The notes beneath the pieces were generated by a model. The model was not told the origin of the DNA. It saw nothing but the letters and a program-made list of their open reading frames with translations, and searched no databases. Positions 5,507 to 62,899 of a stretch of 64,000 nt of DNA are shown here, piece by piece. The stretch is from Asterias rubens. Taxonomy: Eukaryota. Position 1 is the first letter of the stretch. Every line of letters begins with the position of its first letter. The DNA lies in assembly GCF_902459465.1 (NCBI RefSeq), contig NC_047066.1:6697047-6761046 (forward strand), written 5' to 3'. Made by a program: the position numbers and the translations under genes.

Positions 5507-6067
5507 TCAGACTACAACAGACCCATTATAAGTCCCTGCAATTGAAAGGACTTCCCTCCCCACCGTCTCCTCAGACCCACCATCTAAAAACGTCTCGGTC
5601 AGTTCCCTGAGCGTAATGGCAAGTCGTCTGGCGATTATTGCCCCTCGACATATTCCGTGATTCCAGTCGTGTCTTGCGGCACCAGACACAACAACCAGAC
5701 TCCGCGCTGGGAGTGGTATCCTTACAGTCGGGGCGGTTTGGGGGTCATGCCCGGCAGAGGTCGTATCTGAGGTTGTAACTGGGGTCAGATCTGAGGTCGT
5801 AACTGGGGTCATGTCCAGAAAGGTTCCCGACAACAAGTTGATCGTTATTAATCTCTCTCCCCATAACCAGCTGTCGTCCCTGTGGGGATCAATGGAGGAC
5901 CCTCTGTCCGGGCGATATTCAAGATTGCACAGTTCCACAGGGACAAAGTCGTCCAGACCAGGGTGTGAGTTTATGCGATTCACAAAGGGTTGGATGAATG
6001 GAGGCAGCCCTGTAAAACTTCCAGTTTTAAGTTTTCTTCGTTTGAAATTTACTTTTGGTCCGTAGTC
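5507..6067 (-). CDS. ALKBH4: ALKBH4 exon 3 (DYGPKVNFKRRKLKTGSFTGLPPF … IDPHRDDSWLWGERLITINLL … IPLPARSLVVVSGAARHDWNHGI … *), stop included
   Basis: Near-colinear match to remembered human ALKBH4 (DYGPKVNFRKQKLKTEGF…AIDPHLDDAWLWGERLVSLNLL…IPLPARSLLVLTGAARHQWKHAI). Acceptor ccacag|gactac. HxD iron-binding motif present. Confidence 0.85.
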   Translation of the reverse strand, partial: DYGPKVNFKRRKLKTGSFTGLPPFIQPFVNRINSHPGLDDFVPVELCNLEYRPDRGSSIDPHRDDSWLWGERLITINLLSGTFLDMTPVTTSDLTPVTTSDTTSAGHDPQTAPTVRIPLPARSLVVVSGAARHDWNHGICRGAIIARRLAITLRELTETFLDGGSEETVGREVLSIAGTYNGSVVV

Positions 6068-7084: not shown

Positions 7085-7312
7085 CTGTTTCCATCGCCCA
7101 GACTGAGATGGTTTCCATGGTGACTCATCAATAATCTGGACAATTTCTGCCTCTTCTTCTTCAGACACAAACTCAGGTATGAGAATGACTCCTGGAAATT
7201 CAAGACCATTCCCGGAGTGCTCACAAGTCGACGTTACTAATGACTTGTCATTGAAACTCTCTGTCTGTTGATACGCTTCATTACACATCCAGCAGTAAAT
7301 GTATGGCTTCTC
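7085..7312 (-). CDS. ALKBH4: ALKBH4 exon 2 (EKPYIYCWMCNEAYQQ…FPGVILIPEFVSEEEEAEIVQIIDESPWKPSQSGRWKQ)
   Basis: Matches human …FPFPGVMLIEDFVTREEEAELVRLMDRDPWKLSQSGRRKQ. Acceptor ttttttaaag|gag and donor cag|gtgaga. 228 nt, phase 0. Confidence 0.85.
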
Positions 7313-8225
7313 CTTTAAAAAATAACACAAACACACTTTTCTGAATTATTAACTTGTTCATAATTTTTTTCTAAAAGTCAGGTGTTTTTTTAAGTATTGC
7401 TTGTGGTTCAGCACATCTCCTTTGTAAAAAATTAAAAAAATTCTGACCTCTGGAAATTATATTATATTTCCTCTGGCAAACTCAAGTTTTGGTGTTCAGT
7501 TTGCATTTAGCCTCACTGATATCTATTTCTTGAAAAATTATGCAGAAAACAAACATTTTATATTCATAATTTCTTAAACTCAAACACTTCGGCAGCTGAA
7601 CAGCGAGGAATTATTAGTAAGAATTATTTAACTAGGCCTACGTCTTGAATTGAAGTTTCATGGCCCAGATGTTTTTTCTTGATTGAATTTTGACAGATGA
7701 TACTGTTCCAAAACAAACAAAAACATGATAAAACTTTGGCATATTCAAGACCCAGTATTCAGTAACTAGGGCGCTGTACTCCTTTTGTTTGAAGTTTGTC
7801 ATTATCTATTGCTATTTAATGACAAACTTTGAAAAAAAGGAGTACAGCGCCCTGGGTCTGAGCTACTCCTAGAACTATGCGGTGTGTTCCCAGATGCTTG
7901 TCCATATGTTTTGTACACAAAGCACGGATTGGGTATTTTTTCTTTTCAGGGCGAACGTGTGCAGACAATTCTTCATGTTTGTCCTGGGAAAAAAAGTACT
8001 CGCACGTACCTCGCAACGAATCGGGCAATCGGCATTTGTCAATGAGAGTTCTAAGGACACATAAGGCCTAATTTTGGCGAGATTTAAAAAAGAAGAAGAG
8101 AGATTTGGGTTAGCAAAATTAAAACTAATAGTTCTAGGAGTAGGTCTGAGCATGGAGAGAGAAAAATATATTTCTACGTCACTCCATGGTCTGAGCATAT
8201 GCCACAGACAATCCAGTGCAATAAT

Positions 8226-8854
8226 GGAAGGCACTAAAAACTAACCTCTACAGCGGTTCGGAACTTTTCGTGTGCTCTCGGAACACTCCGGCACGGTTCG
8301 CGCGATCCCCCACGCAGCAGGTTTGGGGAGTTGTTACATAAGAGTGGACTAACCACTAGGACCTGGTTGTTAATGATTTCATGTCTAAAAGATGCAAGTA
8401 CTGCTTCAGACCTCTTTATTCAAGTACGTTTGTAGCAGCAGGTTTGGGGAGTTGTTACATAAGAGTGGACTAACCACTGGGACCTGGTTGTTAATATTTT
8501 CATGTTTAAAAGTTGCAAGCACTGCTTCAGACCTCTTTATTCAAGTACATTTTTAGCAGCAGGTTTGGGGAGTTGTTACATAAGAGTGGACTAACCACTA
8601 GGACCTGGTTGTTAATATTTTCATGTCTAAAAGATGCAAGCACTGCTTCAGACCTCTTTATTCAATTACGTTTGTAGCAGCAGGTTTGGGGAGTTGTTAC
8701 ATAAGAGTGGACTAACCACTAGGACCTGCATGGTTGTTAATATTTTCATTTCTAAAAGATGCAAGCATATGCAAAATGACGTCATAAGGTCATTCTCGCT
8801 CGGGTATTCTCCGATGGGCCGAACCGCTGTGGAGTTTAGTATTTAGTGCCTTCC
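8226..8854. mobile_element. Mutator-like (MULE-type) MITE with ~34-bp TIRs and an internal 4 x ~120-bp tandem array, in ALKBH4 intron 1
   Basis: TIRs ggaaggcactaaaaactaacctctacagcggttcgg (8226-) and its reverse complement ending at 8854. Exact 9-bp target-site duplication tgcaataat at 8217-8225 and 8855-8863. Confidence 0.75.
8295..8765. repeat. Minisatellite, ~120-bp unit x 4 (agcaggtttggggagttgttacataagagtggactaaccactaggacctggttgttaat…), internal to the MULE-like MITE
   Basis: Four near-identical tandem units visible directly. Confidence 0.85.
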
Positions 8855-9490
8855 TGCAATAATTTTACAACATTAAAAAATATAGTATCTAAAAAACTAA
8901 TTTACCTCGAGATATCCCTTTTTGTTAAAATAAGTGAAAAAGTAGTGGCGCCATATAAGCTTGGGCGATACCACGATATTATCGAATATCGCGATACTAA
9001 TTTAGAAACGATATCGATATCGGATCGATTTTGTATTAATCGAAATATCGGTAAATCGCGATATCGACTAAGTATCGCGATGTATTTCCTAGCCGAGACG
9101 TCTCGCGACAATAAATCTCATAGTGGAGATAATCTTACATCATCACTAAAGAGCTGCGAGTCACCGCAAGATTCCTTTGTAGATTGGACCGACCGGGTTT
9201 CTTCGGAGAAAAAACCCAATCAAAGCAGAGATTAGGCGGCCTTACACAGACTACCGAAAACTACATTTAGAATCACTATTGTATCACATTACACTCCCTT
9301 TGAGTGTGCGGCTCAGGGCCGCTGTCTGCGCCCATCTGAGGTGTAAATCGGCTATTAAACTTGGTAGTTTATTTGGTTAGGCTCTATAGAGAAGAGTGAT
9401 GGTCAACTCAGTTTGGAAATAATTAAAAGAGCCGATCTTTTAATTATTTCCAAACTGACTTGGCCATCATTCTACTTCAATCGTTCAAAG

Positions 9491-9898
9491 ATGGAAGGTG
9501 AACTGCGTCTTGTGTCTAAGAAAAAAACAACTTCTGCCGTATGGGTTCATTTTGGTATTGCTGTTGATGAAGACGGAAAAGCAACGACTGAAAATGAAGC
9601 GACCTGCCGCATTTGCTTCAAAAAGGTCTCAATCAAAGGTGGCACTACGTCAAATTTAAGCAGTCATCTCAAGGTAAAACACCCTGCCGAGTCGGCAAGA
9701 CTACAGCCCTCTGCGTCGCCATCACAATCAAATAGAGCCGGTCCATCGAGATCAAATCTAACCACCATCACGGATGCATTTACCCGTCCAAAAAGAAAGT
9801 TTTATTTGAAAAAAGAAATCAACTGCCAATGGTGCGTCATTGAATTACCAAACATTACTAAATTATGTAAGCCTTTACTTTTACGACGGCAGCGCTAA
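9491..9898 (+). CDS. BED-type zinc-finger ORF (…SAVWVHFG…CRICFKKVSIKGGTTSNLSSHLKVKHPAE…). A transposase-derived fragment with no DDE or dimerisation domain.
   Basis: C-x2-C…H-x4-H spacing and the W-x-HF signature of BED fingers. ATG at 9491; the ORF track's TTG at 9413 is rejected. It lies inside the hAT-like element. Confidence 0.6.
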   Translation: MEGELRLVSKKKTTSAVWVHFGIAVDEDGKATTENEATCRICFKKVSIKGGTTSNLSSHLKVKHPAESARLQPSASPSQSNRAGPSRSNLTTITDAFTRPKRKFYLKKEINCQWCVIELPNITKLCKPLLLRRQR

Positions 9899-9956
9899 TC
9901 AATTGAATACATTTACCGATCTGTTGGTAAATGTATTCAATTGATAAGCGCTGCCA
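9888..9956. repeat. Perfect ~30-bp-stem hairpin (cggcagcgctaatcaattgaatacatttaccgat | ctgttggtaaatgtattcaattgataagcgctgcc) immediately 3' of the BED ORF
   Basis: Inverted repeat read directly from the sequence. Confidence 0.8.
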
Positions 9957-10770
9957 CACTGCGCCGTCAAATAAAAGTAAAGACCTACTGAATATTGGCC
10001 TCCCTCCTCACTCTCAGTCTGTGACACAGCCGCAAGATTCCTTTGTAGATTGGACCGGCCGGGTTGTTTCAGGGGGGAAAAAACATCAAAGCGGGGATTA
10101 GGCGGTCTCACACAGACTACCGAAAACTACAGTGTGTCTGCAGAACGCCAGGGTCACTGCATGCTCACTGCACCACCACGTGTGTGCTGCACCACCACGT
10201 GTGTGCAAGTAGCGCTAGCGCAAACTTATTAGTCATGCAAACAATAGAGCAGTCTGTCATGCGCAGACGTTAACATCTTAAACACATGTAGTAAGTAATG
10301 GCCCCTAGTTTTACACCCCATTGGTTTGGAGTAAAACCAGAAGAATAGGTCATTACAACACCTCTCTTATATGCTACAACTGTCTCTTCTACAACTTTCA
10401 CTGGGAGTTTGAAGACTGATGATGTTAAATTTAATTAATCGCGATTATCGAATATCGCGATATATTGTTGGCGATATATCGTGAATAAAATAAATCGATA
10501 TCGCCCAAGCTTAGTGCCATACGAAAAGTTATCCTATCTTTCTTTAAAAATATTCCCTATAAATAAGCTTTACGTTCACAAAAACCAATAAACTTGGTTT
10601 TTAGTTTCAGACCATGTTGACATACAAAACTCTGACTGGTGAGGGACAACAGCGCCCTCATTGGCAATTGCAGTTGAGAAAAAAAGAATGAACACAAATA
10701 TCTGAACAATTCCGACAAAAGTCACGAGTCGAAGTTGAAAGAAAATAAACCTTATATAATAGAAACTTAC

Positions 10771-10890
10771 ATGTGGTGACTTTGATGTGACAGTACTTTG
10801 CGAAACATCACATCCATTTTCACATCCATTTTCACATGATAAACAAGTTCTTATGCCCTTACACCCACATTTCTCTCCCCAATCCACCAT
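10771..10890 (-). CDS. ALKBH4: ALKBH4 exon 1 (MVDWGEKCGCKGIRTCLSCENGCENGCDVSQSTVTSKSPH)
   Basis: Start ATG (plus-strand cat at 10888-10890). The CGCKGIRTCL motif is shared with human ALKBH4 (ECGCKGIRTCLIC). Donor cat|gtaagt at 10771. Confidence 0.7.
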
Positions 10891-12448
10891 TTTCACACAT
10901 GCGCGTATAGTCCAGTACATGTAGCCCAAATACACACGACTACGCATGACGATGAACGCGCCCAATAGCCCCAAAATTGGGCTTGGATATCGCCCGATTA
11001 TGGGATATCCTCAAAGAGGGCGCTATACAAATTATACAGCGCCCTCCTCCTCCTTTTCTCTTTGTGACGGCGACGCGGCGGTCATAGGTTGGCTCATATT
11101 TTTCAACGGATCGTCTCAAAAAAGTTTGTCGTTTTGCAAGATCTTGAGGTGTTAGCTTCTGAGAAGGCAAGGAAACATTCATCGATTCGTAAGTAACCTT
11201 TTCGTAAATAAATTCTATTAATTCAAACAGTGGATGTTCTCGTTTCATGGGAGTGTCGATCGCGCCACTTTGCTCAATTTTGAGCGACATTTTTTTTTCC
11301 AGGGGCGCGTCGCGACCAGTAACAAATTTTCAAACATGAGATCGCAGTTTTTAGACATTATTTTAATGAATCTTTATTGATTACAATAAATCATATTTTA
11401 CCAGATATTCTGGACGTGCTAAAAATGGAAAAAGTGAGGTGATCTTGTATGAATTTCAGGTTAAATATCCTTTCACTTGCCATGGTCCCAAAATTATTTT
11501 TATATTTTGATGATTTTTTCCATCTCGTTTCCGTCTGTAGAGGGCGCTGTAAAAATACAATTTGCATGTTTGTTTTGGTTTCATTCAAAAGTTTTACTGA
11601 GTCATTTTTGACTGAAAACAAGATTGCAATGGTACCTCACGGGGGTTCCCATGAAATTTGAAACAGGATTACTAACATGAATTTTTAATTTAAAAATTTA
11701 TAATTTGCAAAACTATAGTAGAGTTGGCCTGCACAGGAAATAAAATTACTCAAATAAAAAGTATTATTGGAGTGAATGACCAGAGAGAAGAGACCAAAGC
11801 CAAAGGTTTAGGCAGTTTTTTTTTCTCCAATTATAATATATCACTGTATCAAATGGTACAACATTATCTGTTCAGTTCCATTGTTTTATTAAATTAAATG
11901 TTATGGTCTGAAAATCGTCCAATGTGATTTACTTTCTCACAGACTAAAACACTTAAAAAATGCCACTCTTTTCATGTCCTTGAATGTTATTTCTTTCAAT
12001 TCAATTCAATTCAATTCAATTAACTTTATTTCCAACTCCAAACAAGTAAACAAAACAATTAGGAGTGAATCAAGAATTATGTTTTACAAGCAAATGGAAT
12101 AATGATAATACATGAAGTAATAATACAACATTTACAAGCAAAAGCAAAATATAAATTACGGAAAACAAAACAAAACCAAAACAGCACAAGGTGATGGGGT
12201 TGTAGGGGGCCCATAAAAAGCAATGCTTGTCGAGGATAGACCCCCCCCCCCCTTACGGAAGCAAAACTAATAGGTGGAAAGAGCGAGTAAAATGTAGTGG
12301 CATAAAAAATCAGTTTACAAAAAGAAACAAACACAATACAGTAGGCGCTATTCTAAATAAATTCTAAGCAATAAATTAAGAGCTTAACAATAAAATATCA
12401 ACTTAACCATTTGTTTTTTTGCCCACAACTTTAATCCAGTATAGAAAG
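10891..12448. promoter_or_regulatory. Putative bidirectional promoter / intergenic region between divergent ALKBH4 (-) and LRWD1 (+)
   Basis: The two start codons lie 1.56 kb apart on opposite strands. CpG-dense blocks at about 10950-11110 and 11240-11320 (cgcgcc, ggcgacgcggcggtc, gtcgatcgcgcc, ggcgcgtcgcgacc). Confidence 0.5.
11998..12033. repeat. Microsatellite (caatt)n x ~6, upstream of LRWD1
   Basis: Direct observation. Confidence 0.9.
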
Positions 12449-13432
12449 ATGTCAGAAAACGCTAACATCCCCGCTGAACCAACACCTACAGAGCCCGATC
12501 TGGTGCCCCCTGCTGAAGAAGCTGCACCCATTCTCCAAGTCGAGCCTGCCATTTCAGAAGAAGCTCCTGTCCCTGAAGACGATTCCACTCCACAACTCCT
12601 GGCAGCAGTCGAGCCCGAGCAGACCCTTGACCTCATTCCAGAGGCCCAAGTCGAAAGCGTCCCAGTCCTTCAACCGGAATCAGTGCCGGAAATCCCAGCA
12701 GAGGCGATCCAGAATGCAGCGGAGCTAGCCCAGACTGTGACTTCAGAGAATGTTCTCCAGATCGCCCTTGAGGCGGTCCAAGCCGTCGCGGAAGCTGTAC
12801 CCACAGAGGGCATTCCGGAGCAAGTTGCCCAGCTCGCCCCGCAAGAAGCAGCCGAACCGACGGTCGAGCAAGTGATGTATCCAGTCGCCGATCAGATTAT
12901 TCCCGTTGAGATCATCAATGCTCCACAAGAGCAGCAAGAGGGAGAGCAAGTCGCTGAACCCGTCCTGGAGGCCGTCCTGGAACCCGTCATGGAATCTGCC
13001 CTGGAACCTGCCATGGAACCTGTCCTGGAAACCGCCCTGGAACCCGCCTTGAACGAGGTGGCTCCTGAGCCCCAGGTCGAACAGACCCTAGCTGCCATGC
13101 CAACTCTAGAGCCGCCATCCACTGTGCAACCCTACAATCCTCAACACACCGCCCCGGCCATCTCTCCACCCAAGATCACATCCTACACGGCTGTTCACAC
13201 GACGACCGGCATCATGCGTTACACGCCAGGGATAATGTCTGCCCTCGCTGGCAAGTATTCCAACAGCAGTCAGTTAGTGGAGCAGCTGGTACTCAACTGC
13301 GCTGGGTGTATCTCCCTGTCGGATATCCGCGTTCTGGACATGTCCAATCGAAAGATCATGAACCTTGACCCCGCTGTGTTTTCCCGGATGCCGGAGCTGG
13401 AAGAACTGGACATTTCCTTCAATAAAATAAAG
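12449..13432 (+). CDS. LRWD1: LRWD1 exon 1. ATG, then a long acidic/Pro-rich low-complexity extension, then the first leucine-rich repeats (LVLNCAGCISLSDIRVLDMSNRKIMNLDPAVFSRMPELEELDISFNKIK).
   Basis: Long ORF with LRR consensus at its 3' end. Donor aag|gtactaag at 13433. The ORF track's TTG at 12419 is rejected in favour of the ATG at 12449. Confidence 0.75.
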
Positions 13433-13977
13433 GTACTAAGAATAAATGTTCATTGTAACCCTTGGTGCGACTCTAATAAAACACTTTAAGGCAAGGTATA
13501 CTTTTGGGAATTGTCAAAGACCACTTTCCTCACTTGGTGTATTCAACATATACAATACCTGTGAAAATTTGGGCTCAATTGGTCATCGGAAAAAATCCCC
13601 TTGTTGAATAGAATTATGTGCTTTCAGTTTGTTTTTTTAGATGCCCAAGAAACCTATTTAACTCCATGCACCATTTTGTTTGAAATTCTGAGGCCTCGAA
13701 ATCAAATTCAAATATTTTAGTGAGAAATGACTTCTTTCTCGAAAAGGACGTTCTTCAGAGGGAGCCATTTCTCACAATGTTTTATACTATCAACATCTCT
13801 CCATTGATTGCTACCAATTAAGTTTTTGTGCTAACAATTATTTTGAGTATTTCCAGTGCCTTTAAGCAATGGTTACTAAGCCTCAGTATCCTTCACTGGA
13901 AGGAATTGGGACGGTAAGGTCCTTCGTTTTAACTTATAAGAGCCATTGTTTTTTCATACCAGGGTTTTCCAACGCAG

Positions 13978-25210: not shown

Positions 25211-28200
25211 ACTCAAATCACGACCAATTTTAAAATCCTCCACATTCTCATTTTTATTCATCACTTTTAATTTTTTTTTTTTTTCAATCACCATCTCTCA
25301 AAACAAGTATTTGGAAACTCTACATTATTGATGTCATGATTACAATTACAAAAGAAAGTCCAATTATTATCAAACAACCAAAATCCTTCTCCAACAAGAA
25401 ATAAATAAATGTACGTAAAGCCTTAAGACTACTTGGATTCTCTACAGCACTACAAAGACAGTACAAAAAGCATTTTTTAAATTTGTTTTTATCTTAAAAG
25501 ATGAAGTTTTGTAGCCACCTGAAACCCCAAAACCCCCATTCTTCTTGATATACTCTAAAACATCACATATAAACTGATTGTGCTCCAGTGCTTTTTCTCT
25601 CATAATTTGTTCATTATTTTTCTGTTAATTATCTATGACTATGATACAATAATTACAAATAGATTTTTTAACCCCAAACCACCTAAATGCATATTTCTTC
25701 CACAATTTGCAAAGTTTGTTTTAGAAATTCTTAGGCAAATTTACATATTCAAAAAAGAAAACCTGTTGATCGCCAGAGATGTTTTATTATTCTTTTTTTT
25801 TTTATGAAAACAAAATTTAAAATAACCAAAAACAAAACTTGAGTACAGACACAATGTCTACAACTTTAGCACAAATGTTTACGCCTTGAGAAAAATATAC
25901 AAAAATTGCAGCACACAAAAAATCTGGTCATTACTAGTGTACTTAACAATGTCCCTCTCTCTCACTCGCTCATAAAAACAAGAGGAAAAACCCTGGTAAA
26001 TTAAACTTAAATAAAAAAAGAAATCAAACAATAGGGCAATGGATAATTTGCATAAATAAATACAATATGATCGATAGCGGAGAATAACTTCTTCAAAAAC
26101 AATTTAAAAATTGTTTTTTTACTAAAATTACGGAATTGTACACTATGATTGCATTTGATATCTGCTATTATCGTAAAAAATGGTTTTGCAAAATTGGTGG
26201 CCAAATGTTGAAATTTCGTCTCCAGAAATCAAATGGGGAAAATATTTTGAGAGGGTTTTGTGTAATGGTTTTACTGAACGGGAACATTTCAGACACTACA
26301 TGGCAGTTAAAAAATGCAGTGATTCCTTTCTTCCACTCATTAACATCTTATTTCTCTGTCCAATCGATGCATTGTAGTAAAAAACAAAAACAAAGTAGAA
26401 ATTGTTTAACCTTGTTTTAAAAAAATATTAAATATATATCAACAAATCCACGAGAGTTCACCTGTGGTCATGCATGATATGGCATAAAGTGAGCAAAATG
26501 TACAATGAAAAACAGATACAAAATAACAACAAACATAAACATCGGTTGTTCATTGATAACAAAAAGAGTTGTTCGATTAATTTAGCGGTTTCAATTACAA
26601 TAAAAGATGAAATAGTTTATTGTGCATCTTGTAAACCAAATCCAAAGCTTGAGTCGAACCTTTGATTGGACTTTAGAAATAGTTTGCATGGCGACTTGAT
26701 GCCAGCAGTCGCCTTTATCAAATAAAACTGGGTACAATTAATCATAATTTGTTAAGAATACCGCTGGTATTTAGGGAACTCGGAGGGAAACCCTGTTGAA
26801 TCTCTAACAGAAAATTCTTGATTACAAGAACTGGGGTCCATTTCACAAAACTCTTCCTCACTTAGGATCGATCCTGGGCTTTAAGGCAGTGGACACTATT
26901 GGTATTTTACTTAAAATAATTATTAGCATAAAACCTCACTTGGTAACGACTAATGGGGAGAGGTTGATAGTATAAAACATTATGAGAAACGGCTTCCTCT
27001 TAAGTGACGTAGTTTTCGAGCAAGAAGTAATTTTCCACGAATTTGATTTCAAGACCTCAAGTTTAGAATTTGAGGTCTCGAAATCAAGCATCTGAAAGCA
27101 CACAACTTTGTGTGACAAGGGTGTTTTTTTCTTTCATAGTTATCCCGCAACTCCGACGACCAATCGAGCTCAAATTTTCACAGGTTTGTTATTTCATGCA
27201 TATGTTGAGATACACCAAGTGAGAAAAATGGTCTTTGACAATTACCAATAGTGTCCAGTGTCTTTAAGGACAAGTCCAAGCCATAGGTCGATCCTAAGAT
27301 TGTCCTAAAGGACGCGTCCAAAGTTAGGACGAGTTACCCTTATAGACCCTTTTGGAAACCACGGCATCAGCTCCAGATTCGGTTCAGGCTAGCTTGGCGC
27401 TCGCAGTTGTTTTGACAATTGCGCAAGCTTTGCGTACGCGCTCAGGGCTTCAGACCAGAGAACAGAGCCTGAAGCCAAATTCAAAGCCTAAGCCGTGGAT
27501 TCGAAAATTACCATAGTTGAAAGAACAAATATGGAGAGGAGGAGAATCAGATTATAGGCACTGTTTGTTTTAGTTATGTAATGCCATGGGGTTAGGGGTG
27601 GTTCCCAATTGTATTTGCACATTCTGCTCATTAAAAATTGACTTGGAACCAGACTACTTTGTGGCAACGTATTTTTAAAGCTAGGATATCTAGGGTTTAT
27701 TTAATCTACAGTACAAAAAAAAATGGTCCCTCACGGTTCAAAACATTGTCTCAATATTTGCATATTTTCAAGTCTTTTGAAAAAACTAAGTTGATTCTGC
27801 TGACTTTGGGTCATTTTTATTGGAAAAGCTTGGGTTAACTAAGTGGAAAATGTACATTGGAAGGTTTTTGTTGTTTTTTTGTTTTTGTTTTTTAAGCATA
27901 ATTACCCTTTTTTACAATACAATCATTTATTATTATTATTATTTTTTTTTACATCATAATTTAGTTTTGAAAAACACTACCTCACATTCCATCCAAAGAA
28001 TCCATAACGTTTTGGAAAAAGAAACAATTCTCAGTACGCACACACACATTACACGGAATGGATTAAACATAAAAACAAAATTGCCATCATTTCTGTATAA
28101 TAAACACATAATTCAAACTGATTTCCTTTTGTTTGCCGTTCGTATTATGTGTTGAATAAATATTGAAATAAACTACAATCTACATAGATATTTACAAAGA

Positions 28201-30477
28201 TATGATATATTAGTAAGATTTCTATGCTAGTACATCTGACAAAAATTACATTTAAAGAAGAAAATCTGTTTACCTACACGATGTGTGCTACCCAACTATA
28301 AACCGTCATCATATTGTTTGATGGTATTAACTCCATCACCCATTTCCAAATCATGAAACACATTTAGTGGTACTCGAACCCACACCACTCCGCATGCATA
28401 AATTACATGCACTGCATGAAAATTTCCGTCGTAACTTTTTTTTCCACAAATCTAAAACAGTTGATTTGAATTCATATGGGGCTTGGCACATATTGTGTAG
28501 ATAAGAGAATTCCAAAGTGATTTAAGTAGGTTTCTGAAAAAATGTGAGGGATTTTACAGCAAACGGGCAAAATAGTCTGGCCTGTTTTTTTTCTTTCTCT
28601 TAAGGACAATGCAGCATTGATTTCTTCTGGGCCGAACAAACTGAATGGTTTTATCGGCCGACATTCTTCCTCTCCTACACAGCAGCATTGGCAAGGAAGT
28701 ATTCAAAAACTGCAGCAAAAAAGTTTCCCCTTTTTAAAAAATTGCTATGAAAGTGTTCTCCCATCACACAAATGAATCTGGCCTCGCATTCCTACTTGGA
28801 CATTGCATTCCTACTTGGGCACCAAAGAAAACAAAATGGCTGACTGCATTCATATCACCAGAACACTTTTGCATCATCTTTGTTTTCCTCCCTTTCTTTC
28901 CCTCTCTCAAAAGAGATCCAACAAGACAATTCACAACACAACCACAAGCCAAAATACCATGGAAACCCAAAATATATTTCATTACTGGCAGACCGCGCAC
29001 AAAATCTAATGTCCACGAACAACGTTTCCGCCTCGCCCGAAAAAAACCATATACAAAGTTTAAAACTGTACAAATTATTCAAATGTCGGTAAAAACGTTG
29101 ACGTCTGTCTTTAATGCAGAGAAAATCTAAGTATGTCCTCTGTACATTATGGTCTTCATTTGCACGTTTTGTTAAAATTCATAATCACCTTTTTGTTATC
29201 TTAATTATTTTCTTTTTTTCAACGTCTTCACAAATGTCCCAGGAATACCACTGATGTCTTGTCTCAAACAACAATTGAACTTATGAGTCCATGATTGGAA
29301 TAAGAAAAGGCTGTCACAGTGGTAAGGGCATCTTGTCCCCGCCCCCCTCTTCCACCATAATCCATCCACCTTCAAAATAATCCATGCGATCAAGCTGAGG
29401 CTAGACTAGAAAAACAGTCTCCCCTTTTGTCATGTTTTGAGAAACAGTTATTGCTTACAGAGGGAATGAGACAAGACTAACCACAGCCTGATGAAAGTCT
29501 ATGGATTATTTTGAATGCCAATGCGGGACAATACAGTACTTCAGCATGGAAATTAGTAAACCCCCCTCTGGGACCAATGAGCCGGTCTATTCACAACCCT
29601 AGGAAAATTGATAACATAATCGATACATTGTTTATACGGGGGAGTACAAATGAATTGCAACTCCAAATGTGATGAGGAAATTTGTTGAAACACCATGACC
29701 AGAGATGTATTTTTGGAAGCTTTTTACTTGAATATATTTTCAAGGGGCTTCTGCAGTCAGTGCAGCGGATGTAATATTTTCAGCCCTTTTCCACTTTCAT
29801 TGAAAATTACACATACATATTGTATGAACAAACAATAATTTAGCATGCTAAGTACAAGAAGCCCTAATTGCATTAAAAGTCCACTGAAAAATGAAAAGGA
29901 AAAAAAAAGGCGATTGTAGTATAAAAGGCTATCATCACCTTTCATTATCAGACATCGCCCTAGTAAATACGACAAAATCAACTGGTTACAATCCTGTGGT
30001 TGAATTAAGTCCTTAAAAACAATTGCACCGTGAACATTGTATGAAAACAACAAATTTAAACCCCCCAAAAAACTTAACAATGAAGTATTCAACACTGCAT
30101 GAGATATGCCTCGACTCACACTCACACCCCCGTAACAACACAATGGTATCTTCCATGATAAGTGATAATACGCAATAATGGACTTCTCCATTCATTAGAG
30201 GTAGTTATTTGGGGAAAAAATAGCCTGCATATTATTCTTCCAAAAGTTTACGAGTTCTACAGTATCTCCACTGGACACTAAAATCAATTGTAATGACTGA
30301 ACTGGTCACTATGAAAAGAAAGAAAAACCCAAACATCAAAGCTAAAATGTGGATTCATGATGAGCCGCTACTTAGAAGTTTACTCTAAGGATTGTGTTAA
30401 CTAGAAATATAAGACTTCAATGGTTGTTATTCAAACATCACATTTGTATTCCCGTGGTACCTGTTCTGGTGGTTACT

Positions 30478-30860
30478 TAAAGGCAGTGGACACTATTGGT
30501 AATTGTCAAAGACTAGCCTTCACAGTTGGTGTATCTCAACATGTGCATAAAATAACAAACCTGTGAAAATTTGAGCTCAATCGGTCATCGAAGTTGCGAG
30601 ATAATAATGAAAGAAAAACACCCTTGTCACACGAAGTTGTGTGCGTTAGATGGTTGATTTCGAGACCTCAAGTTCTAAATCTGAGGTCTCGAAATCAAAT
30701 TCGTGGGAAATTACTTCTTTCTCAAAAACTATGGCACTTCAGAGGGCGCCGTTTCTCACAATGTTTTATACCATCAACCTCTCCCCATTACTCGTCACCA
30801 AGAAAGGTTTTATGCTAATAATTATTTTGAGTAATTACCAATAGTGTCCACTGCCTTTAA
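30478..30860. mobile_element. MITE family A, full-length copy (~385 bp; TIR aaggcagtggacactattggtaatt; internal hairpin gatttcgagacctcaagttctaaatctgaggtctcgaaatc)
   Basis: Additional full or near-full copies at about 26884-27270 (inverted), 36820-37203, 39988-40386, 43858-44232 (inverted), 46186-46570, 47322-47686, 49706-50070, 54626-55012 and 60057-60440. Truncated or deleted copies at 13705-13870, 38538-38840, 42040-42405, 42405-42485 and 43030-43318. Confidence 0.85.
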
Positions 30861-36819: not shown

Positions 36820-37203
36820 TTAAAGACACTGGACACTTTTGGTAATTGCCAAAGACAAGTCTTCTCACTTGGTGTATCTCAACATATGCATAATACAACA
36901 AACCTATGAAAATTTGAGCTTGATTGGTCGTCGGAGTTGCGAGATAACTATGAAAGAAAAAAACACCCTTGTCACATGAAGATGTGTGCTTTCAGATGCT
37001 TGATTTCGAGATCTCAAATTTTAAACCTGAGGTCTTGAAATCAAATTCGTGGAAAATTACTTCTTTCTCGAAAACTACGTCACTTCAGAGAGAGCCGTTT
37101 CTCACAATGTTTTATACTATCAACTATCCCCATTACTCGTTACCAAGTGAGGTTTTATGCTAACAATTATTTTGAGTAATTACCAATAGTGTCCACTGCC
37201 TTT
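36820..37203. mobile_element. MITE family A copy (NLK intron)
   Basis: TIRs and internal module identical in organisation to the 30478 copy. Confidence 0.85.
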
Positions 37204-40386: not shown

Positions 40387-41062
40387 CGGTACGGATTGAG
40401 GAGAAAACATTAAGAAAATAAATAAAAAATCAGTTGCTGCAAAAAGTCCCCAAGGCCTTTTCACTGTCTCCGTAATTGAGTTAGGCCTTCAAGTAAGTCA
40501 AGGTTTATCCATCGACCATGATAAATCAAGCGTAATTTCATTTTATGGCAACGTGAAATTGGTGCAAAAAATACAGAATAAATCAGAGCGACGGAAAGAC
40601 ACATTTTTTCCTGAAGCAAAGCAAATTGGCATTTCAAGAGTGAGAGAGCATCATTACAACAAGGATAATGAACACCCCCCCCCCCTGAAAAAAAAAACAC
40701 CTTAAAAACCGTCACTTCACAAAGAACTACTAAATACAAATTGTTTTGCTTAACACAGAAAAAGAAGGAAAAAAACAGGTTAGCGGTCAACTTCATAAGG
40801 TTTTTACTGTTGCCACTGGTGTACTTCTTTCTCAGCAAAAGAAATTTGCTTTTGAGATGCAGTATTTTCTGCTAAACAGCTTCATGAAAATAACTGGGCA
40901 CTTGTCTTTGGCCTCACCTGTGTGACTGTAGTGCATGAGATAAATAATTCTAATGTTGACATCGTCATCGAGTTTCATTTTCGATCTCAGTTTATTCAAA
41001 TTGCTAATTTGTACTAATTTCTTGCTTCTTATGTTACTTTGGGGACATCTAGATGGCCTCAC

Positions 41063-41272
41063 CTGTGTGACTGGACTCTGGGCCTGAAACAGAATCCTCC
41101 TCCCCAGTAGCTCAGCGAAGATGCAGCCCACCGACCAGACGTCAACCGACGACCCATAATGCTTACTGCCGACCAGGATCTCCGGCGCTCGGTAGTACTG
41201 TGTGATGACCTCTTGGGTCATGTGTTTGTTTGTGTCTGGTTCCTCCAAGCGGGCCAGCCCAAAATCACATAT
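41063..41272 (-). CDS. NLK: NLK exon (ICDFGLARLEEPDTNKHMTQEVITQYYRAPEILVGSKHYGSSVDVWSVGCIFAELLGRRILFQAQSPVTQ), DFG through subdomain IX
   Basis: Matches human ICDFGLARVEELDESRHMTQEVVTQYYRAPEILMGSRHYSNAIDIWSVGCIFAELLGRRILFQAQSPIQQ. 210 nt. Acceptor cactag|ata and donor cag|gtgagg. Confidence 0.9.
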
Positions 41273-60440: not shown

Positions 60441-62899
60441 TGCGAAGTCTTCTTTTATTTGGAATCTTAGTTACTTTTATGCAACCTTGTTTTTTAAGGG
60501 GAAAACATGAAAACTTATGCTCTAAATTAATTTTTTTTCTTTGTACAGGAAATTTCGTTTTATGTAAGAAGTGAAATATTTGTTCACAATTCACATACAA
60601 TTAGTTTTCAGGTTTCTGCGACTATGGCTTCTCGCTTGGCGGCTGAACACTGAACATTGAACTTCCATTCAATGGAAGTGCCCTTTGCATGAAAGAAATG
60701 GCCTTGCCCTCTCAAAAGATAAAATTCTACACACCAGTGCACATTTTGTTCCTAGATAACAACTGATAATTAAAAAAAAATTGTGCTCACTAAGCACAGT
60801 GTGTATTATGTGCAACACATAGGAGATAATTACAGTTCACCATTCACCAAGGTCTTCCATGGTTGCACTGTATCCATTCATAGAAGAGCAATTACACTAC
60901 TGACCCCTTTTACACCATACAGAAGATCCTGAACCTCTGTCCAGTCTTTAAAAGCCTGATCCTGTACCCTTAATCTAGGTGTGAAGCCACACAGCACAAC
61001 AAAAAACTGCCTGGGAAATTTTCCTCACACCTGGGCCCCGGCAAACACTGTGTATACGTGCAAGTCTTGCCCAAAGTGGCTAAGTTCAATATTTACGCTA
61101 TTGGGTCCCCAGCATTGGTGAACAATGCCCCCATCAGTCATGCTGGGCTTATTCTCAAAGGCTTGGGACTAAACAACAAAAAGTTAATTCTTAGGCTCTT
61201 TTTGGAGGCTCCCACTTTGCTCTGGTGCTGGCTCGGCGTCCTTTTCATGTTAATTACAGATTAGGACTAAATGTTGTTAGACTTAGAATGGACTTGCATA
61301 CACCATAGTTATCTATGGATACACTGAACAATGTATGGTTTGTAAGTTTTGTGCCTGGTCTTAAAAAACCTTTCCAATACATGATGCATTGTGTTATCAT
61401 GGTAAAAGGAAATAAACCACACTTCAAATCAATAGGTTTTTTGGTGTCCTTCATGTACTTTACATTCACAGTTTCAGTCACAATTTAGCATTTAAGTTAC
61501 ACCACCACAGGTAATGTTGGTTGGTCGTTAGATGTTTGCAATCAGCATTTTCCTTTGTTTCCATTAGAATCAATTCTGGTTCGGATCAATTCACACACCT
61601 TTACTTTTAGATTAGTGTTTTTTCCCTGCTGCCTAAAAAGTGGGTTCAGTAAAGTCTATCAAACAGGCATTATTTGGTCTTGGGGAAAAAAGTGAACACT
61701 TTATGGAGTGCAGTGCAAGGGCTGACCAACAGAGGTGTAGGCCTTAGACTTTTCACTTCAGGCCTTAATAACGAGAATTTTTTCTTATTTTTCCAAGAGT
61801 AAAAAAAAATGGAAAAAAGACTAACGTGGGAGGAATATCAAGCCTGGTCTATTGACTGACATCCTGACGTCATCACCAGTGCCAACTCTTTATGCCATTT
61901 TGGTTAAATGCCATTTTGAGAGTCGCATTCCACGTGTGTTTACTGTGCAGTGCTCACGTAAGACACATGGTCTTTACATGCAAAATGGCACACCATGGAC
62001 AGACAGTAGCCTACTAGTTTGACGTCAGTGCACGGTGTCCATGCATAAAAACAAACAAAAAACCCAATAGAATCAGGTACTGCAACATCAAAATGTCAGA
62101 TTGTTATGTTTTATGCCCAAAAGGGAACTCTTTGTGCTTGCCTCATGGCCTACCGGAACACCAGGCTGTTGAGCTCTTTGGCAAACGTGACAGGCAAGAG
62201 TCACATAATTGTTACTTGATGCAGTTTGTACATTGAGCTTCTTGTGGTTTAAAAAAAAAAAAGCATTTTAACACTAACACATGCCTCACAAGCTTTTCTT
62301 GTGCACTGTCTGGCCTGACTAATACTAAGGTAATTGGTGTGATAAGGTTACATAACTTGGCACTTCAACCAAAATGCACTGCTTAACACCAGACCACTAC
62401 CAGCAGGCATCACGCCTTTGTTCCGAACAAACACTGACTGCTGACTGAGTGTAAAAGTATAATAGTACACTTAATACAACCAGATACAACCATCCATATA
62501 GTCCTACATGTTCGAAGAAAAAAAGAAAACAAGAAAAGAAACATGCAGATTTAACCCATGATGGAAAATTATCCTTCCAGACACATTTAAATCAATAGTG
62601 TGGGCCTAATCAATATCAGTCAATACTCTAATAAAGTTCTCTCATGCGTCCCATGCTTTGATTCTAATGTTAATGGTTTGAAAAGCAAATTTGGCTAGCT
62701 CTACAAAAGTCAAAGTAGAAACAAACAGCCCCTAAAAAAAATTGTTTTCAATCCCAACCTACAGATATCCTGTTTTCTTGAAGATCAGGACGTGTAAACA
62801 CGTTCAAAATAACATGATTTCTGAGAAACTTTATTTCCTTGCTTTCAATGTGTTCCTTTTGTACCACCATGGTCTTCATAAAGTTGGGGTTTTTCTAAA

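Follow-up and report, generated by a model that had tools for sequence, protein, structure and literature searches.

The first intron of ALKBH4 in the sea star Asterias rubens contains a short segment with inverted termini and a tandemly repeated interior, which raises the questions of what kind of sequence this is, to which group of mobile elements it should be assigned and how its repeats arose. The segment comprises 629 bp at positions 8226–8854 of the stretch of contig NC_047066.1 analyzed here (64 kb; positions 6,697,047–6,761,046 of the contig, assembly GCF_902459465.1), hereafter called the window, whose numbering is used throughout. A preliminary description made from the sequence had interpreted it as a miniature inverted-repeat transposable element (MITE) of the Mutator-like element (MULE) type. 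We find that it was truly inserted by cut-and-paste, with duplication of 9 bp at the target site (target-site duplication, TSD), and that it is very probably a non-autonomous cut-and-paste DNA transposon (class II, with terminal inverted repeats, TIRs) of MITE size.

Structure of the element

The element is bounded by TIRs of 36 nucleotides (nt), the left one at 8226–8261 on the plus strand, beginning 5'-GGAAGGCACTAAA, and the right one at 8819–8854 on the minus strand, with three mismatches relative to the left (33/36 complementary). The repeats had been correctly recognized and placed in the preliminary description, with a length of ~34 bp that is here corrected to 36 nt. No TIR match was found in shuffles of the window. 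Both ends read GGAAGG..., and the complementarity ends abruptly past 36 nt. The TIRs are in turn flanked by two identical copies of TGCAATAAT, at 8217–8225 and 8855–8863 (strand not applicable for either), confirming the perfect 9-bp flanking duplication reported earlier; at a fixed position, a 9/9 match is expected by chance with a probability of ~6e-6 for this base composition. When the window was scanned for inverted termini enclosed by 9-bp direct repeats, two such structures came up, versus none in 20 shuffles. When folded as single-stranded DNA the element forms a long hairpin in which the TIRs pair to close the stem (z = -4.5), as is expected of any MITE.

Inside the TIRs lie two unique subterminal arms, both annotated on the plus strand and unrelated to one another. 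The left arm (8262–8313) is CpG-rich with a repeated CGGTTCG motif, and the right arm (8768–8818) holds TGACGTCA at 8777–8784. The latter is a perfect palindrome and CRE-like; it was seen three times in the whole window versus 0.55 expected, with the other two occurrences at 61865 and 62020, and these occurrences are probably due to chance.

Between the arms, at 8314–8767 on the plus strand, Tandem Repeats Finder identified an array with a period of 121 bp, 3.7 copies and 94% matches. The units begin at 8314, 8435, 8556 and 8677 and are pairwise 93–99% identical; the fourth contains a 4-bp insertion (TGCA) and breaks off after unit position 87, leaving 51 bp between the end of the array and the 3' TIR. 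The interior is thus a tandem minisatellite, as had been described, with the earlier figure of four 120-bp units replaced by 3.7 copies of 121 bp, and it was also rightly held not to be the remnant of a transposase. The element is without coding capacity: its longest open reading frame (ORF) comprises 70 amino acids and found no relatives among 5.8 billion protein clusters. An origin as an RNA gene or a short interspersed nuclear element was rejected, as the element gave no match in Rfam.

An empty site in Asterias amurensis

The orthologous ALKBH4 locus of Asterias amurensis (L001) was used for comparison. Positions 8128–8225 of the window aligned to L001 10605–10509 with ~90% identity (blastn), and the alignment broke off with the last base of the left 9-mer (8225), immediately before the left TIR, to restart past the element. 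In both the alignment and the raw sequence, the A. amurensis site reads ...GCCACTGACAATCAAG TGCAATAAT TTTACAACATTTAG..., with contiguous flanks and a single 9-mer, located at L001 10517–10509 on the minus strand; the sequence to the left of TGCAATAAT is also given as ...CAATCAAG. The segment absent from A. amurensis is accordingly 8226–8863, a difference of 638 bp, the length of the element and a single 9-mer taken together.

Because the difference between the species amounts to exactly the element and one target copy, TGCAATAAT can be regarded as a true TSD and the TIRs as the true ends of the element. The preliminary description had considered that the TIRs might turn out to belong to a larger composite repeat, which is not so, since the break-points of the empty site fall exactly at the repeat ends. 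As the A. amurensis site is empty, the element must still have been moving at about the time when A. rubens and A. amurensis diverged, or later. With an indel that matches the TIR ends and one TSD copy to the base, and with neither TIRs nor TIR + TSD structures arising in shuffles, it is exceedingly improbable that the segment is something other than a transposon (inverted and flanking repeats that both arose by chance, a simple indel or an error of the assembly), even though one copy alone was observed.

Several points weigh against the interpretation as a non-autonomous transposon that inserted at this site. The empty site of A. amurensis could be the product of precise excision instead of ancestral absence, and in yeast ~90% of the sequenced excisions of the MULE Muta1 from between 8/9-bp TSDs were precise (PMC5225508); the element studied here would have been mobile in either case. 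With a single copy to go by, the duplication could conceivably be one of 8 bp combined with an extra 3' T belonging to the element. Furthermore, the 64-kb window contained no other copy of the TIR or of the 121-bp unit, nor did 23 kb of A. amurensis sequence or three short ENA contigs, and no autonomous partner was found within the DNA compared, the Asterias genome at large lying outside the search.

Further searches for copies were likewise empty. A blastn comparison at low stringency, with the element as query and the window and L001 as subjects, gave no further copy, and scans of IMG/VR, JGI metagenomes and GTDB genomes with exact patterns of the TIR, arms and unit returned nothing, the host genome not being among those collections. 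Two outward ORFs starting inside the TIRs, used in an exact look-up for alleles of other individuals, gave no record, and the window contains no ORF for a MURA-type DDE transposase. These empty copy searches say nothing about the copy number in the host genome.

Marine metagenome assemblies were found to hold Asterias-type nuclear contigs (L002, L003 and L004; ENA ERZ23498428, ERZ1764477 and ERZ23498370), and these marine samples therefore contain host or environmental sea-star DNA. In one such contig the last exon of ALKBH4 mixes A. rubens-like and A. amurensis-like residues. The contigs that include this exon run away from intron 1 and stop short of it.

Established knowledge of class II transposons suggests how the TIR + TSD structure and the empty site observed here would have come about. 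A DDE transposase encoded by an autonomous relative elsewhere and supplied in trans would bind the TIRs and the subterminal arms and excise the element, which would then be inserted at a 9-bp staggered cut, with gap repair giving rise to the 9-bp duplication. The superfamily would consequently be one that makes a 9-bp stagger, namely Mutator/Rehavkus, Merlin or AcademH.

Superfamily assignment

Of the earlier designation as a MULE-type MITE, the second half holds, as we are dealing with a transposon that has TIRs, is non-autonomous and falls within the size range of MITEs. The first half was based on the length of the TSD alone. TSD length by itself cannot assign a superfamily, as 9 bp falls within what is reported for MULEs, Rehavkus, Merlin and AcademH alike; the 9-bp TSD is thus not diagnostic and "MULE-type" is not established.

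A plausible if tentative assignment is to the MULEs, perhaps to Rehavkus among them, in which case a MURA-type DDE transposase would have mobilized the element and the minisatellite would be a family trait. MULEs have TSDs of 8–11 bp, usually 9, and TIRs of 14–500 bp, while in Rehavkus elements the TSDs measure 9 bp and the TIRs 26–400 bp, and a minisatellite immediately precedes the 3' TIR (PMC6446971). The 9-bp TSD and 36-bp TIRs of the A. rubens element lie within both sets of values, and an array that stops 51 bp before the 3' TIR fits the position of the Rehavkus minisatellite. It is also common for the TIRs of non-autonomous MULEs to enclose foreign sequence; typical MULE TIRs on the other hand exceed 100 bp (PMC5225508), and the TSD length is common to Merlin and AcademH. 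Rehavkus elements carry subterminal tandem repeats in variable number that are able to seed satellite DNA, but in Tribolium these repeats are found in both inverted termini (bioRxiv 10.1101/2024.12.02.626372), whereas the element studied here has short TIRs and a single central direct array. Its host, moreover, lies outside the arthropods and annelids to which Rehavkus was limited in a 2019 survey (PMC6446971). No MULE transposase sharing the termini of the element, which in Rehavkus would carry a PHD finger, was found in the DNA compared.

It is also possible, at a somewhat lower level of confidence, that the element is a MITE of the Merlin superfamily mobilized by an IS1016-like DDE transposase of the DDE_Tnp_IS1595 type. 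Its 9-bp TSD, 36-bp TIRs and 5'-GG start all agree with the description of Merlin, though a GG start is common in MULE termini too and is therefore not exclusive to Merlin. Merlin elements have TSDs of 8 or 9 bp and TIRs of 24–462 bp, all described families share a conserved 5'-GG at the terminus, and some non-autonomous copies have variable internal tandem repeats, with copies differing by four versus three units of a 163-bp repeat on record (PMC8101967). The superfamily is present in echinoderms, in a sea cucumber and a sea urchin; the echinoderm proteins in the 2021 survey came from just two species, and neither is a sea star. When five echinoderm Merlin transposases were compared by tblastn to ~95 kb of Asterias-type DNA there was no match, and no Merlin transposase associated with the termini of the element is known or was found.

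Least likely among the three is AcademH, or another less-studied group making 9-bp duplications, which we consider improbable. AcademH elements, which are present in a sea urchin, have 9- or 10-bp TSDs and many short non-autonomous derivatives of 123–767 bp, and several previously unclassified non-autonomous elements with 8–9-bp TSDs have been transferred to this group (PMC7165386). The element shares with these derivatives the TSD length, the short non-coding form and the occurrence in echinoderms. However, the termini printed in the supplement, for few families, are unlike GGAAGGCAC..., tandem arrays are not described as an AcademH feature, and no partner was found.

The tandem array and its origin

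The arms and the array of the element appear to be distinct modules, as they differ in composition: the left TIR and arm have a GC content of 0.57 with 9 CpG in 88 nt and the right arm, its TIR included, a GC content of 0.48 with 6 CpG, compared to a GC content of 0.40 and just 2 CpG in 454 nt for the array. The 121-bp array may be viewed as non-coding cargo, without demonstrated function, that would have grown by slippage or unequal exchange, most probably in the source element and before the present copy inserted.

Expansion of the array in place, after insertion, as opposed to inheritance from the source element or capture of a pre-existing satellite, seems rather unlikely. In its favor, the units are 93–99% identical (1–7% divergence), making the array younger than or similar in age to the ~10–12% divergence of the flanking intron between the two species, and no free-standing 121-bp unit occurs in the window, the 23 kb of A. 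amurensis sequence or the three short ENA contigs. The divergence figures fit expansion in the source element as well as after insertion, between which one copy cannot decide. Against expansion in place, the composition of the array is unlike that of the arms, which fits acquired or old cargo, and documented families carry their repeats as a family feature with varying copy number (PMC8101967, PMC3879986, bioRxiv 10.1101/2024.12.02.626372).

The preliminary description had called a minisatellite between transposon termini uncommon, which is not borne out by the literature: MITEs and other DNA transposons with tandem repeats have been widely described (DTC84/pearl, Tetris, Rehavkus, Merlin), and a tandem-repeat core framed by transposon arms is a well-documented arrangement and not an unusual one. 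In the pearl/DTC84/DINE-1 elements up to ~5 core repeats are placed between arms that bear inverted repeats, and one such element has been reported from a sea urchin (PMC3879986), and Tetris is a foldback element carrying tandem repeats (PMC4079207). Like the A. rubens element, both have unique arms with inverted repeats around a tandem core, and both have been linked to satellite DNA (PMC3879986, PMC4079207). Membership in pearl/DTC84 was rejected, the resemblance being one of analogous architecture. Elements of the pearl/DTC84/DINE-1 type have a putative AA dinucleotide TSD, inverted repeats of 10–20 bp that are in part subterminal and a tetranucleotide microsatellite next to the core repeats, and are considered Helitron-like (PMC3879986); in the element studied here the TSD is instead 9 bp long, the inverted repeats are terminal and measure 36 bp, and the array has no microsatellite beside it. 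The element is a clean and probably undescribed member of the tandem-repeat-bearing non-autonomous DNA transposons.

The host gene and neighboring repeats

The location in intron 1 of ALKBH4, already given in the preliminary description, was verified at the level of the protein: the exons, on the minus strand at 10771–10890, 7085–7312 and 5507–6067, translate exactly to A. rubens XP_033627925.1 with GT-AG introns, and intron 1 (7313–10770, minus strand) has a length of 3458 bp. The last exon is 97% identical to that of A. amurensis, whose gene spans 3064 bp versus a coding span of 5384 bp in the window. ALKBH4 lies head-to-head with an LRWD1-like gene (window 12419–13489; L001 1–8438), an arrangement that is likewise found in vertebrates, and a gene encoding an NLK-like kinase is located in the distal part of the window (40832–41248).

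The second transposon that had been noted to adjoin the element was also confirmed. It is a hAT-like non-autonomous element of 1558 bp (8956–10513) with the termini TAAGCTTGGGCGATA... and ...TATCGCCCAAGCTTA, an 8-bp TSD (GCGCCATA/GTGCCATA at 8948–8955 and 10514–10521) and an ORF encoding a BED zinc finger at 9413–9898. It is missing from A. amurensis, where a single GCGCCATA is found at that position. The ENA contig L004 starts at the third base of this element (window 8958) and is 89–99% identical to it, representing a collapsed copy, and the hAT-like family is for this reason multi-copy. A protein search with the BED-finger ORF gave just two short ENA contigs. Together, the two insertions, 100 bp apart, make up ~64% of intron 1 and have nearly doubled it in the A. 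rubens lineage.

A third, MITE-like element of 279 bp (7864–8142) with the TIR TACTCCTAGAACTAT is located 74 bp upstream of the studied element, between two identical 9-bp copies of GGTCTGAGC in direct orientation at 7855–7863 and 8143–8151. Its TSD is thus equal in length to that of the studied element, while its TIR is unrelated; as it is present in both Asterias species it is the older of the two. Abutting it is a near-perfect 86-bp hairpin at 7767–7855 (AGGGCGCTGTACTCC...GGAGTACAGCGCCCT), with 37-nt arms that are 92% complementary, which may be a tiny foldback element.

Additional repeats were found elsewhere in the window. Two small nested elements with 8-bp flanking repeats, at 639–952 and 707–884 (L001 17043–17356), are both kept in A. 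amurensis; the outer one has the TSD TCGGTCGA and the TIR GTTGGTCTTTGAAA, and the inner one is flanked by TTTTAAAA. The sequence GTAATTAC followed by CAATAGTGTCCA occurs five times, at 37176, 40356, 42375, 43289 and 43876, suggesting that a family of dispersed repeats occupies introns of the NLK-like gene. Finally, a 3.9-kb segment at 26924–30817 has TAGCATAAAACCT inverted termini and the 8-bp repeat ATAATTAT, with no obvious transposase-like ORF within it, and may be a larger element of the hAT type.

Implications

The element represents a base-exact, lineage-specific insertion of a DNA transposon in an echinoderm whose sister species has retained the empty site; in itself this matters little beyond annotation. 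It indicates that DNA transposons moved after the split of A. rubens and A. amurensis. If the family is multi-copy with variable unit numbers, it would offer a system in which to follow how transposon-borne tandem repeats become satellites, and possibly a presence/absence marker for asteriid populations. There is also a slim chance that the element is a Rehavkus-like (Mutator-related) non-autonomous element recently active in a sea star, with the 121-bp unit possibly constituting an early satellite seed in Asterias. If true, this would be of modest significance in that it would extend the Rehavkus group to a deuterostome, beyond the arthropod and annelid hosts reported to date.

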